A DNA stretch of 64,000 nt from NCBI GenBank assembly GCA_963759785.1, contig CAVXAM010000006.1, positions 210,823 to 274,822 of the forward strand, written 5' to 3'. The translations under genes and the position numbers were made by a program. Under the pieces are notes generated by a model. It saw nothing but the letters and a program-made list of their open reading frames with translations. It did not search any database and had not been told where the DNA came from. Position 1 is the stretch's first letter. Each line of letters opens with the position of its first letter. Source of the stretch: an uncultured Chloroflexia bacterium. GTDB taxonomy: Bacteria; Chloroflexota; Dehalococcoidia; Dehalococcoidales; RBG-16-60-22. Of this stretch, positions 56,478-60,692 are shown piece after piece.

Positions 56478-59400
56478 ATGAAAATAGGTATCGATATCGG
56501 CTCGGTGACAGCGAAAGTTGTAGTTATCGATGATGCCGGCAAAATACTGGAATCGAGCTACGTCCGCTCCAAAGGACAGCCCGTTGAAACTGTCCTCAAG
56601 ATGCTGGAAAAGCTGCTGGTAAAGTACCCACCCGCCCAGTTTAAAGCAGCGGCGGTTACGGGCACCGGGGGACAGCTCATTGCTACCCTGCTGGAAATAC
56701 CGTTTGTTAACGAAATCATCGCCCAGGCTTCAGGAATAGTGCATTTTCATCCCGAGGTACAAACGGTTCTGGAAATCGGCGGTGAGGATTCCAAGCTAAT
56801 CGTTCTCCAAAAAGAAGCCGGCGAAAAACTGCCTAAAGTTTCCGACTTCGCGATCAACGGCATTTGCGCTGCCGGCACCGGCTCTTTCTTGGACCAGCAG
56901 GCATCACGCATGGGTATACCTATCGAGGATTTCGGCGACGTCGCCCTGAAGTCGGAACACCCACCCCGCGTCGCCGGACGCTGCAGCGTTTTCGCTAAAA
57001 GCGATATGATTCACCTCCAACAAGTCGGCACGCCGGTTCACGATATCGTCGCCGGACTCTGCTTCGCCATGATACGCAACTTTAAGGGACAGGTCATTCG
57101 CGGCCGCGACCTGGGAAAACCTATCGCTTTCCAGGGCGGGGTTGCGGCTAATAAAGGCATTCGCCGCGCACTACTAGAGGTTTTGGAACTTGAAGAAAAA
57201 GACCTGATTATCCCCGAATATTTCGCCGTACTCGGCGCTATTGGCGCCGCACTTTCATCTAAGGAAAGTACCCTCCCCGCTGATACTATCCAGCGCTTGA
57301 AGGATCACATCGCCAAACATGATTATAAGTTCACCACACTATCACCATTAAAGGGCGATAACTATCCGATAGATATCGAGTCGGTAAAACTGGAATCTGT
57401 TAAACCCATCGAGGCTTATGTCGGGGTGGATATCGGCTCTATCAGCACCAACGTCGTTGTGATTGACCGCGAAAATAGAGTGTTAGCGCGACGTTACTTG
57501 ATGACCGCCAGCCGCCCCATCGAAGCCGTTAAACAAGGTCTGTTGGAAGTCGGTAAGGAACTCGGCGATAAGGTAATCGTTAAAGGTACCGGTTCCACCG
57601 GGTCGGGACGTTACATGACCGGGGAGTTTTTCGGGGCAGACGTTATCCATAATGAAATAACGAGTCACGCTAAAGCCGCGGCTTTCGTTTGCCCGGATGT
57701 TGATACCATCTTCGAAATCGGCGGGCAGGATGCTAAATATATCAGCCTGCAAAACGGTACGATTATCGACTTCGCGATGAATAAAGTCTGCGCCGCCGGC
57801 ACCGGCTCCTTCCTCGAAGAGCAGGCAGAAAAACTAGGCATTAATATTAAAGAAGAGTTCGGACAACTTGGACTGGCTTCAAAAAACCCCCTCGATTTAG
57901 GAGAGCGCTGCACGGTCTTTATGGAGTCGCAACAGAACTACTGTAAGCAGCGGGGAGCGGCTAAAGAAGACCTGGTGGCAGGGCTGGCGTATTCGGTGGT
58001 AAAAAACTACCTCACCAAGGTCGTCGAGGACCGTAAAATCGGCGATCATATTTTATTCCAGGGGGGAACCGCTTTTAACAGGGCGGTAAAAGCCGCTTTT
58101 GAAGCAGTGCTCGGCAAAAAAATCACCGTGCCGCCCCAGCATGATATCCTCGGGGCTATCGGCGTAGCGATGTTAGCGAAGGACGAGATAGCAACCAACG
58201 GCAAAACAACTTGCTTCCGCGGTTTTAACCTTGTCAATCGAAAATACGAGCTATCATCTTTCGAGTGCCAGAGCTGCTCCAACCGATGCGAAATTCACAA
58301 AGTAGTCTTTGAGGGCGAGAAACCGCTTTTCTACGGCTCCCGCTGCGGCAAGTGGGATAGCACGGAAAAGAAAGAGCAGCGACAGTCCTCCAAAATACCG
58401 CGTTTGTTCGAAGAGCAGGCACAGGCTTTATTGAACAGTTATCCAAAAGACAAACCGGATAAACCCAATGGTAAAACCGTTGGCATCCCACGCGTTCTAT
58501 TTTTCCATGATCTTTATCCGCTCTGGAAGGGCTTTTTCACCGAGCTCGGCTTCCAGGTAGTGCTCTCCGACCCCACTAACCGCCATATCATCCGGCAGGG
58601 AGTGGAGAACATCGTCGAAGAGCCGTGCCTACCAATTAAACTGGCACATGGGCACATACTTAATCTGCTAGAAAAGAAGCCGGACTTTATCTTCATGCCG
58701 GTGCAGTGCACGATGGAAAAACTCTCCTCCGACTTTAAAAAGTCGTGGAACTGCCCACTTACCCAAAGCCTGCCATTCCTGATGCTTAGTTCCAATCGAA
58801 TTAAGGAGGCGTTAGAAAATTCTAAAGATAAACCGCAATTGATCCAGCCGGTTTTTCATCCCGATCGCGGCCGCGAAAAGCTTAAAAAGAAGCTGCGGCA
58901 AACAGCGCGCCTGGTCGGGATAAAGTCTGAAGCGCTGGTGGATAACGCCATCCAGGCGGGGCTCGATGCTTTCGACGCGTTTAACCAGTGGCAGAAAAAA
59001 CGCGGCGAGGAAATACTCTCGCAGCTTAAGCAAGACGAAAAGGCAATCGTCGTCGTGGGGAGGGCGTATAACACCTACGATGAAGCGATGACGCTGGACA
59101 TCCCGGGCAAGCTGCGGGACATGAATGTGCTGGCGATACCGCTGGACTTCCTGCCGTTAGAATCGCTGGCGGGGGAGGTCATTCAAGCCCACCCGAATAT
59201 GTACTGGAAGGCGGGACAAAAGATTCTCGGCGCGGCAAGGATGATTGCCAACGACCGCCGCCTTTTTGGACTGTATGTAACGAACTTTAACTGCGGTCCT
59301 GATTCTTACCTGGTAAAGTTCTTTAGTAAAGAGACCGAGGGTAAGCCCTTCCTGACGATAGAAATCGACGAGCATTCTGCCGATGCCGGCATCATCACAC

Positions 59401-60692
59401 GGTGCGAGGCTTTTATCGATACTATCCGCAACGCCAGCACACAGGGCGTCAGCAAACCGATACAACACATCAGCATCTCTTCCGACCACACCAATGAGCG
59501 TATCGTCTATATCCCCTACATGATCGACCATGGCTATGTTCTTGCCGCGGCGATGCGTCACGGCGGCGTTAACGCCCAACCCCTCCCCGAGTCCGACCAG
59601 CTTACTTTAGATATCGGGCGTAAATACACCACCGGCAAGGAGTGTTATCCCAGCATCATCACCACTGGCGATATCGTTAAGAAGACGATGGCGCCGGACT
59701 TCGACGCGGATAATGCGGCGTTCTTTATGCCGGCGGCGAGCGGTCCCTGCCGCTTCGGGCAATATAACCGTTTGCACCGCCTGGTGCTCGACGAGTTGGG
59801 ACTGCCGAATGTGCCCGTCCTCGTTTTCGACCAGACCGGCGGTTATCATAAGGACATGATATCGATGGGTAAGGGCTTCCGCCTCAACGCCTGGAAGGGC
59901 TTTATCGTGCTGGATTCCTTCCAGAAAATGGCGCTGGAACGGCGGCCTTACGAAGTGAACCAGGGCGAAATTGACATCGTCTATAACGAGTGGCGTGATA
60001 AACTGATTGCCAACGTTGGCCAGCACGTGAACGTACTGGAGAAGCTTTCCAAGCAGGCGCGGAACGCTTTCGAAGCGGTGAAAATCGATAACAGTTCCCG
60101 CAAGCCGCGCATCGGCATCGTGGGGGAGATATTCGTCCGCAGCAACTACTTCGCCAACGATAGGCTCATCCAGAAGCTGGAGGCTTTAGGGGCGCAGTGC
60201 GGCGTGCCGCCTATCGAGGAGTGGTTCGACTATATCGACTTCGAGCGGGAGTTCCGTTACGGCAAGCACATCGAGGGCGGCTGGAAGGACTGGACGATGC
60301 AGAAGCTGACCGAAATCGTTATGGAGACGACCGTCGAGCGCTTAAGACGGCAGTTCGATAAAAGCATCGAGTCGTTCTCGCGGGAGCTGCCGATGATCGA
60401 CATCATCCGGAAGGGGCAGCAGTACCTGACCCCCGCCGTCGAGGGGGAGGCTATCTTAAGCATGGGACGCGTCGTGGAGTACGCCGAGCACGGCTACGAC
60501 GGCATCGTGAACATCATCCCCTTCGGCTGTATGCCGGGGACAATCGTTAGCCTGCTGCTGCACCAGTTCCGGCAGGACTATGGCTTACCTGTGCTGAATG
60601 TGGTGGTGGAGGGGACTAAAGACCCCGGCGAGGGGATACGGTTCGAGGCGTTCATCCAACAGTGCCAGGAGCATCTGGGGAAGAAGAAGTAA
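56478..60692 (+). CDS. Giant fusion: two tandem BcrAD/BadFG/HgdC-type activase ATPase modules plus a Cys-rich linker and a 2-hydroxyacyl-CoA-dehydratase/DUF2229-like domain
   Basis: 1404 aa. Module 1 has IGIDIGSVTAKVV, ICAAGTGSFLDQQ and GRCSVFAKSD. Module 2 has VGVDIGSISTNVV, VCAAGTGSFLEEQ and ERCTVFMESQ. The linker is FECQSCSNRCEIHKV…SRCGKWD, followed by about 800 aa with scattered conserved Cys. Confidence 0.8.
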   Translation: MKIGIDIGSVTAKVVVIDDAGKILESSYVRSKGQPVETVLKMLEKLLVKYPPAQFKAAAVTGTGGQLIATLLEIPFVNEIIAQASGIVHFHPEVQTVLEIGGEDSKLIVLQKEAGEKLPKVSDFAINGICAAGTGSFLDQQASRMGIPIEDFGDVALKSEHPPRVAGRCSVFAKSDMIHLQQVGTPVHDIVAGLCFAMIRNFKGQVIRGRDLGKPIAFQGGVAANKGIRRALLEVLELEEKDLIIPEYFAVLGAIGAALSSKESTLPADTIQRLKDHIAKHDYKFTTLSPLKGDNYPIDIESVKLESVKPIEAYVGVDIGSISTNVVVIDRENRVLARRYLMTASRPIEAVKQGLLEVGKELGDKVIVKGTGSTGSGRYMTGEFFGADVIHNEITSHAKAAAFVCPDVDTIFEIGGQDAKYISLQNGTIIDFAMNKVCAAGTGSFLEEQAEKLGINIKEEFGQLGLASKNPLDLGERCTVFMESQQNYCKQRGAAKEDLVAGLAYSVVKNYLTKVVEDRKIGDHILFQGGTAFNRAVKAAFEAVLGKKITVPPQHDILGAIGVAMLAKDEIATNGKTTCFRGFNLVNRKYELSSFECQSCSNRCEIHKVVFEGEKPLFYGSRCGKWDSTEKKEQRQSSKIPRLFEEQAQALLNSYPKDKPDKPNGKTVGIPRVLFFHDLYPLWKGFFTELGFQVVLSDPTNRHIIRQGVENIVEEPCLPIKLAHGHILNLLEKKPDFIFMPVQCTMEKLSSDFKKSWNCPLTQSLPFLMLSSNRIKEALENSKDKPQLIQPVFHPDRGREKLKKKLRQTARLVGIKSEALVDNAIQAGLDAFDAFNQWQKKRGEEILSQLKQDEKAIVVVGRAYNTYDEAMTLDIPGKLRDMNVLAIPLDFLPLESLAGEVIQAHPNMYWKAGQKILGAARMIANDRRLFGLYVTNFNCGPDSYLVKFFSKETEGKPFLTIEIDEHSADAGIITRCEAFIDTIRNASTQGVSKPIQHISISSDHTNERIVYIPYMIDHGYVLAAAMRHGGVNAQPLPESDQLTLDIGRKYTTGKECYPSIITTGDIVKKTMAPDFDADNAAFFMPAASGPCRFGQYNRLHRLVLDELGLPNVPVLVFDQTGGYHKDMISMGKGFRLNAWKGFIVLDSFQKMALERRPYEVNQGEIDIVYNEWRDKLIANVGQHVNVLEKLSKQARNAFEAVKIDNSSRKPRIGIVGEIFVRSNYFANDRLIQKLEALGAQCGVPPIEEWFDYIDFEREFRYGKHIEGGWKDWTMQKLTEIVMETTVERLRRQFDKSIESFSRELPMIDIIRKGQQYLTPAVEGEAILSMGRVVEYAEHGYDGIVNIIPFGCMPGTIVSLLLHQFRQDYGLPVLNVVVEGTKDPGEGIRFEAFIQQCQEHLGKKK

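Follow-up and report, generated by a model that had tools for sequence, protein, structure and literature searches.

What reaction is carried out by a protein that joins two activase-type ATPase modules to a dehydratase-like half in one very long chain? The question is raised by a 1404-aa open reading frame (ORF; 56478..60692, plus strand, ATG start) in a stretch of 64,000 nucleotides, here called the window, from contig CAVXAM010000006.1 of an uncultured Dehalococcoidales bacterium. The original prediction had described the ORF, which is present as reported, as a stand-alone fusion and held that the substrate of the long fused class was not established. That statement is outdated. The ORF is very probably a single-chain member of the PlsA-PlsR/Ger family, the oxygen-sensitive ether-lipid synthases of anaerobic bacteria, which act on the sn-1 ester of diacyl glycerophospholipids. 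Its most likely function, as we infer for lipid substrate and product in the source organism alike, is to reduce the sn-1 acyl ester of membrane glycerolipids in an ATP-driven reaction, with an ether as the product. The assignment builds on the anatomy of the protein, its colinear homology to PlsA plus PlsR, a conserved set of cysteines and the predicted folds.

In Clostridium perfringens, plsA-plsR is a two-gene operon of the benzoyl-coenzyme A (CoA) reductase/2-hydroxyacyl-CoA dehydratase (BCR/HAD) family that converts diacyl phospholipids to sn-1 vinyl ethers (PMC12838417; PMC9702350). According to the papers that cite the original work, knockout experiments and expression in a heterologous host identified the substrate as the sn-1 ester of diacyl glycerophospholipids (Jackson et al. 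2021, cited through PMC9702350, PMC12838417, PMC8788747). Single fused genes of 4248-4920 bp from Enterococcus faecalis, Lactococcus cremoris and Bifidobacterium longum yield plasmalogens in Escherichia coli (PMC12838417). Ger (glycerol ester reductase), or 'modified PlsA', of Thermotoga maritima and Desulfatibacillum alkenivorans gives 1-alkyl glycerol ethers in E. coli under anoxic conditions only; its string of Pfam matches reads BBD followed by small D/H fragments (BBDHDDH, BBDHDHDH), and Ger homologs are already known from Chloroflexi at the phylum level (PMC13159169).

We found the C. perfringens reference locus by scanning metagenome contigs with the published forward cloning primer for plsA-plsR (PMC12838417, Table S6). 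In the matching locus, L004, the primer site is succeeded by two ORFs, one of 975 aa when its start is set at the TTG within the primer and one of 420 aa. The stretch between the primer site and the stop codon of plsR measures 4199 bp, identical to the reported size of the functional cloned fragment. The forward primer for E. faecalis plsA, a 20-mer, had no match in a scan of genome contigs. In BLASTP comparisons, residues 2-983 of the ORF aligned with residues 4-972 of PlsA (31% identity over 1012 columns, E = 6e-142) and residues 1018-1357 with residues 31-369 of PlsR (24% identity, E = 2e-27). Because it is colinear with both C. perfringens ORFs, the ORF corresponds to PlsA and PlsR joined in one chain. 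The original prediction had noted that a close ortholog of defined substrate would make the enzyme known rather than novel; a homolog of this kind exists at the family level, whereas identities of 31% and 24% do not reach the level of a close ortholog.

The chain can be divided into two activase modules (Act1 and Act2), a linker with four cysteines, and two catalytic halves (Red1 and Red2), of which Red1 matches the C-terminal part of PlsA and Red2 is the PlsR equivalent (Table 1). Fourteen cysteines are conserved in 115 sequences, namely 114 Chloroflexota-type homologs and C. perfringens PlsA/PlsR, and they are distributed as 2 + 2 in the activase modules, four in the linker and 3 + 3 in the catalytic halves. 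The linker, predicted earlier as a CxxCxxxC...C element, indeed reads CQSCSNRC at residue 597 plus C623, and its four cysteines are invariant across the 115 sequences, C. perfringens PlsA among them.

Pfam recognized two BcrAD_BadFG stretches (about residues 1-260 and 315-567, E = 7e-74) and a DUF2229 domain (residues 667-891, E = 3e-59), together with an HGD-D fragment at residues 893-983 that was under the gathering score (E = 2.5e-4). The NCBIfam model TIGR00241, 'acyl-CoA dehydratase activase', matched twice (E = 8e-96). Both ATPase modules retain the phosphate-1, phosphate-2 and adenosine motifs, and each combines the ASKHA fold and these three nucleotide motifs with the two cluster cysteines of HgdC/BcrAD-type activases. 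The two tandem BcrAD/BadFG/HgdC modules that had been read from the sequence were thus confirmed by Pfam, TIGR00241 and the positions of the motifs. In a pairwise alignment with HgdC (chain 1HUX), C130 and C169 of the ORF pair with C127 and C166, which are reported to be ligands of the bridging [4Fe-4S] cluster of HgdC. Pfam and BLASTP together also give the architecture of PlsA and Ger, in which 'BBD' (two BcrAD_BadFG stretches and DUF2229) is followed by a PlsR-equivalent half (PMC13159169; PMC12838417, Fig. 8 legend). The last 415 aa, the PlsR-like part, match no Pfam or NCBIfam model, and no transmembrane segment is predicted in the 1404-aa protein.

The AlphaFold2 model of the C-terminal 820 aa (residues 585-1404) was confident, with a predicted local distance difference test (pLDDT) score of 88 and a predicted template modelling (pTM) score of 0.86. 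When this model was compared with the PDB using Foldseek, all ten matches at E <= 0.001 (E = 5e-5 to 5e-4) were to catalytic subunits: BzdN/O and MbdO/N of class I benzoyl-CoA reductases, HadC, which is the beta subunit of 2-hydroxyisocaproyl-CoA dehydratase, or the double-cubane cluster protein (DCCP). Their template modelling (TM) score was about 0.5 on the target, at 9-12% identity. The proposal that about 800 aa adopt the fold of the client proteins of such activases therefore held, given the DUF2229 match and the BCR/HAD/DCCP catalytic subunits as the only significant PDB matches. The resemblance is at the level of the fold only, because the family profile, searched against PDB sequences, matched activators and no client subunit. 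The model of residues 1-640 (pLDDT 86, pTM 0.76) matched MbdQ, HadI, HgdC and DCCP-R at TM scores of 0.83-0.89 and ~30% identity. In a local hhalign comparison, Red1 and Red2 aligned colinearly and weakly (E = 1.4e-3) with the three cysteines of each half in register, which fits a diverged alpha/beta-like duplication with one three-cysteine cluster site per half.

On the precedent of related systems and the conserved cysteines, Act1 and Act2 would form an intramolecular pseudo-dimer around a single bridging [4Fe-4S] cluster, with C130/C169 and C438/C478 as its ligands. A cellular low-potential donor would reduce this cluster, and ATP binding and hydrolysis would push the electron 'uphill'. The electron would then enter the catalytic module, probably via C597/C600/C604/C623 of the linker, a presumed relay [4Fe-4S] or structural metal site. 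The catalytic module would be a pseudo-heterodimer of two diverged halves of the BCR/HAD type, Red1, equivalent to the end of PlsA, and Red2, equivalent to PlsR; the three conserved cysteines of each may bind a [4Fe-4S] cluster in which a coordination site is open. Here the sn-1 ester carbonyl of a diacyl glycerophospholipid would undergo two one-electron reductions and protonation, and loss of water would give a 1-O-alk-1'-enyl (vinyl ether, plasmalogen) lipid; for Ger-type enzymes the end product would be the saturated 1-O-alkyl ether. Published AlphaFold 3 models of PlsA show Act1, Act2 and a [4Fe-4S] cluster, according to the figure legend (PMC12838417, Fig. 8 legend).

Among GTDB species genomes, we examined the best 80 of 194 confirmed relatives. 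The top 48 loci come without exception from metagenome-assembled genomes (MAGs) of uncultured Dehalococcoidales/Dehalococcoidia, including some from peat (SPRUCE), fen and other environments, and encode proteins 66-91% identical to the ORF. The next 32 are from anammox Brocadiales (Brocadia, Jettenia, Kuenenia) and other Planctomycetota, with 50-52% identity over the full length. Neither Dehalococcoides nor Dehalogenimonas, nor any genus-named Chloroflexota, is among these 80 of 194 relatives. When the catalytic half (C-terminal 820 aa) was the query, at least 981 clusters (50% identity) were found at E <= 1e-30, most of them fused proteins of ~1400 aa. All representatives among the matches listed are 26-31% identical to C. 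perfringens PlsA and 32-54% to the ORF; those with a name are two Brocadiia/Planctomycetota and one Aerophobetes. In a neighbor-joining tree, the ORF grouped with Dehalococcoidia as sister to Planctomycetota/Brocadiia, and C. perfringens fell far outside all 97 fused representatives; the tree is crude, as it was built with a fast MAFFT setting and with C. perfringens as the only validated enzyme. The gene has a GC content of 53% and a GC content at third codon positions (GC3) of 0.65, compared to a window average of 48% and a GC3 of 0.55-0.57 in neighboring genes. The higher GC and the 50% identity to Brocadiales proteins may reflect an old lateral transfer between anaerobic lineages.

Which ether, then, would the enzyme make? 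Within the ether-lipid reading we lean slightly towards a saturated alkyl ether, as made by Ger, over a plasmalogen, because of the affinity to anammox homologs, the grouping of the Kuenenia protein and the alkyl ethers of Brocadiia. An enzyme of the strict Ger type, for which the vinyl ether would be an intermediate at most and the released lipid a saturated glycerol ether (1-O-alkyl, possibly also sn-2), is a serious candidate, if somewhat short of probable. The nearest named relatives of the ORF are the anammox Brocadiales (50-52%), the Kuenenia 'modified plsA' has been placed among producers of ether lipids other than plasmalogens, and Brocadiia produce alkyl ethers (PMC11868695), but the Kuenenia enzyme itself is not validated. 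Two activase modules with one strong DUF2229, and no second DUF2229 in the PlsR-like part, form a pattern that has been tentatively tied to Ger (PMC13274423); as a criterion such Pfam fragments are weak, given that C. perfringens PlsA also has two activase stretches. Somewhat less likely is a strict PlsA-PlsR plasmalogen synthase with a 1-O-alk-1'-enyl (vinyl ether) phospholipid as its product. The direct colinear homology to the validated pair, with all conserved cysteines in common, speaks for it, as does the existence of fused plasmalogen-making versions of the same size. Yet the C. perfringens pair (31%/24%) is more distant from the ORF than any of the 97 fused tree representatives (32-54%), and the nearest named relatives belong to alkyl-ether producers.

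We consider it very unlikely that the protein is an orphan radical enzyme with a soluble substrate, which it would convert by 2-hydroxyacyl-CoA-type dehydration, aryl-CoA-type reduction or DCCP-like reduction of a small molecule. The BCR/HAD/DCCP fold of the catalytic half would suit such an enzyme, the database name is 'acyl-CoA dehydratase activase', and the clade, with its low identity to validated PlsA/PlsR, is known from sequence alone. However, the end-to-end colinearity and the full set of cysteines are common specifically to PlsA plus PlsR, the fused BBD architecture is the published signature of PlsA/Ger (PMC13159169), and even the family profile matched no solved client subunit at the sequence level. 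Three conserved cysteines per half would also set the protein apart from the ligand set of the DCCP double cubane. Apart from the generic fold and the name in databases, nothing speaks positively for this reading. Genes for a CoA-ligase, CoA-transferase, acyl-CoA dehydrogenase or electron transfer are not found nearby, here or in relatives, and more generally no CoA-dependent pathway genes are found among the ORFs scanned across the window or in the neighborhoods of syntenic relatives; this is expected, because an ether-lipid synthase would modify lipids. Given the assignment of the ORF to the PlsA-PlsR/Ger family, it is unlikely that the dehydratase-like domain works on a CoA thioester. Several points nevertheless weigh against an ether-lipid synthase or against naming its product. 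Identity to the sole validated sequence compared is low (31% for PlsA, 24% for PlsR), a Ger homolog in a genome is not always matched by ether lipids in culture (PMC13159169), and we found no lipid data for these Dehalococcoidales MAGs. According to the field's own authors, an alkyl or alkenyl product cannot be assigned from sequence (PMC11868695; PMC13274423). Gene context offers a weak link to membrane-lipid metabolism: in 11 Dehalococcoidia loci a family 2 glycosyltransferase (GT2; Glyco_transf_21 similarity) and PlsY (glycerol-3-phosphate acyltransferase) are encoded just downstream (e.g., L027 9705-10853 (-), L041 5272-5907 (-)). These genes are on the opposite strand, however, they occur in only about one relative in five, and the window lacks them.

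In the window, the gene sits between a tRNA-Gln gene and a hairpin, with rnc upstream on the minus strand and a convergent minus-strand ORF downstream. The description of a stand-alone gene proved plausible: given the tRNA-Gln, a promoter-like site, the hairpin and the opposite strand of the flanking genes, it is most simply monocistronic and housekeeping-like. The hairpin is a possible terminator; it has no adjacent U-tract, and the terminator scan did not pick it up. When 40 ORFs from across the window were searched with Pfam, they proved to include housekeeping, transport and Mo-cofactor genes, and none for a CoA-transferase, an acyl-CoA dehydrogenase or aromatic degradation, in agreement with the original prediction.

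Table 1. Parts of the 1404-aa protein and elements flanking its gene, in window coordinates.
Feature	Residues	Position (strand)	Description	Evidence
Activase module 1 (Act1)	1-262	56478..57263 (+)	ASKHA ATPase; phosphate-1 motif GIDIGS at 4, EIGGEDSK at 99, CAAGTGSFL at 130, RCSVF at 168, QGGVA; cluster Cys C130 + C169	Pfam, NCBIfam, alignment to HgdC/HadI/MbdQ, fold TM 0.88
Activase module 2 (Act2)	310-575	57405..58202 (+)	Phosphate-1 motif GVDIGS at 316, EIGGQDAK at 413, CAAGTGSFL at 438, RCTVF at 477, QGGTA; cluster Cys C438 + C478	
4-Cys linker	590-625	58245..58352 (+)	C597, C600, C604, C623; small three-stranded beta unit in both models	
Red1	667-985	58476..59432 (+)	DUF2229 + weak HGD-D-like tail; matches C-terminal part of PlsA; conserved Cys C717, C759, C939	Pfam, Foldseek, BLASTP
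Red2	1005-1404	59490..60689 (+)	PlsR-equivalent half; conserved Cys C1056, C1091, C1351	BLASTP to C. perfringens PlsR
tRNA-Gln (anticodon CTG)		56298..56371 (+)	Directly upstream of ORF	ARAGORN
Sigma-70-like promoter candidate TTTACA-17-TATAAT		56387..56415 (+)	Between tRNA and ORF	11/12 consensus matches; consensus match only
Hairpin, 9-bp stem, 3-nt loop		60705..60725 (+)	13 nt past stop codon	dG -13.4 kcal/mol, z -2.67

The closest relatives have the same upstream block, mobA-moeA-mobB-DUF362-acylphosphatase-rnc-tRNA-Gln, and a variable downstream side. In the window, the mobA-moeA-mobB block for Mo-cofactor maturation and the DUF362 gene that follows it span 51681-54231 (+). We considered membership in a catabolic or mobile cluster and rejected it, given the conserved upstream synteny. 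ARAGORN placed a tRNA-Gln gene ahead of the homologous gene in most Dehalococcoidia relatives, and in more distant Dehalococcoidia the gene has another context, yet again lies behind a tRNA-Gln, here with anticodon TTG.

An additional small ORF, orf128, lies between tRNA-Gln and the enzyme gene in 29 of the 51 Dehalococcoidia loci (e.g., L013 6711-7100, L038 5581-5955). It encodes a helical, charged, Cys-free protein of ~125 aa that belongs to no Pfam family and has the consensus M..EESG.DELMRL...ERQR.EQGKKV.GVLQGL...DLYFSL. The module of tRNA-Gln, orf128 and PlsA/Ger-like gene occurs in two flanking contexts, one of which has tRNA-Gln-CTG and the other tRNA-Gln-TTG. orf128 is absent from the corresponding interval of the window (56372-56477); the window and its closest relatives have lost it. 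Other genes also occupy this slot. In three loci whose enzymes are 86-91% identical to the ORF, a short-chain dehydrogenase/reductase is encoded there on the same strand (L012 6828-7811, L016 4808-5752, L030 4836-5783), and in L013 a DUF2284 gene follows orf128; in the window the slot is empty. In Brocadiales (L066, L077, L079 and others), the homolog lies between genes for the large (422 aa) and small (about 165 aa) subunits of an aconitase-family protein, all on one strand (e.g., L077 4697-5965, L079 4268-4759), and a flavodiiron-like gene (ODP + flavodoxin) follows, an odd placement for a lipid enzyme.

The Dehalococcoidia and Brocadiia proteins, ~50% identical to each other and ~30% to clostridial PlsA, may form a functionally distinct branch that makes, for example, saturated mono- or dialkyl glycerol ethers, perhaps with orf128 as a clade-specific accessory in Dehalococcoidia. 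We regard this as unlikely. If it were true, uncultured Dehalococcoidales of peat, fens and groundwater would be an unrecognized source of the non-isoprenoid ether lipids used as biomarkers in sediment and peat. A surprise of modest size may thus lie in this clade and in orf128, its companion.

Downstream of the gene, a 155-aa ORF with no Pfam match (60801-61271 (-)) converges on its 3' end, and beside it lies a short DUF3800-like fragment (61400-61684 (+), E = 5e-4). Both belong to a strain-specific stretch without similarity to the flanks of relatives. From 61550 to the end of the window at 64000, the GC content jumps from about 48% (1-61500) to about 69% (locally 77%) and stays high. Within this segment lie an ORF resembling phosphoribosyltransferases (61575-61979) and a gene for a histidine phosphatase that a frameshift breaks in two (62220-62669, 62338-62808). 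No relative has a corresponding segment downstream of its gene. Possible origins are the insertion of foreign DNA, an island in decay and a chimeric join in the assembly.

Elsewhere in the window, a 903-aa protein (35623-39388 (+)) fuses a GNAT acetyltransferase to an ADP-forming acyl-CoA synthetase (CoA-binding, Succ_CoA_lig, ATP-grasp_5) and resembles a Pat-type protein acetyltransferase. A gene for a histone-deacetylase-family protein (358 aa) directly follows and overlaps its end, and the two may form a pair for protein acetylation and deacetylation. A 1015-aa GAF-GGDEF-HD(-GYP-like) protein (14430-17477 (-)) adjoins a LuxR-type response regulator (13735-14415 (-)), possibly a cyclic-di-GMP signaling pair. 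The window also encodes a 671-aa molybdopterin oxidoreductase whose first domain is pyrogallol-hydroxytransferase-like (6581-8596 (-)).

Published work already covers the family with its architecture and substrate, and also its presence in Chloroflexi at the phylum level; the ORF is a new member from Dehalococcoidales. The identical protein is present in public data on a contig of 283 kb. Databases continue to name the gene, like thousands of its relatives, 'acyl-CoA dehydratase activase' or 'CoA-substrate-specific enzyme activase'. Because no Pfam or NCBIfam model recognizes PlsA/PlsR as such, proteins of this kind keep looking like orphans. With this assignment, uncultured Dehalococcoidales of peat, fens and groundwater join the organisms that are genetically equipped to make ether lipids anaerobically, which bears on the question of who produces the bacterial ether lipids used as environmental proxies. 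The increment is modest, because Ger homologs in Chloroflexi had been reported at the phylum level (PMC13159169).

How does the protein compare with the systems already described? C. perfringens PlsA-PlsR (CPE1194/CPE1195; Q8XL48/Q8XL47) has the same order of parts, Act1-Act2-4Cys linker-Red1 in PlsA and then Red2 in PlsR, and in Pfam its PlsA, like the ORF, shows two BcrAD_BadFG stretches and DUF2229. It differs in consisting of two polypeptides instead of one and in a weak second DUF2229 match in PlsR that the ORF lacks, and it falls outside the large clade that contains the ORF. The fused PlsA proteins of E. faecalis (EF1327/Q835P9), L. cremoris and B. longum, compared by description, have the layout and size seen here (one gene, about 1415-1640 aa, Act1 + Act2 + Red1 + Red2), but they come from Bacillota and Actinomycetota, in part from facultative anaerobes. 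Ger of T. maritima (Tmari_0479/AGL49404) and D. alkenivorans (SHJ90043), also compared by description, has the same fused 'BBD...' architecture and makes saturated alkyl ethers; its Pfam strings contain extra short sub-threshold matches, whereas the ORF has only BBD and one weak H.

The dehydratase and benzoyl-CoA reductase systems (HgdC + HgdAB, HadI + HadBC, BcrABCD, BzdNOPQ, MbdONPQ) work on the same principle, in which a dimer of ASKHA ATPases, bridged by a [4Fe-4S] cluster, feeds a low-potential electron into a two-subunit Fe-S core. Identity is about 30% for the activators and the folds match, but they act on CoA thioesters, are made of separate polypeptides and are without the 4-Cys linker. 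In DCCP:DCCP-R (PDB 7YYL), an ATP-dependent reductase is likewise paired with a client of the same fold, and both parts are among the best structural matches of the ORF. DCCP is a homodimer with an [8Fe-9S] double cubane that reduces small molecules, whereas the catalytic module here consists of two diverged halves with three conserved cysteines each.

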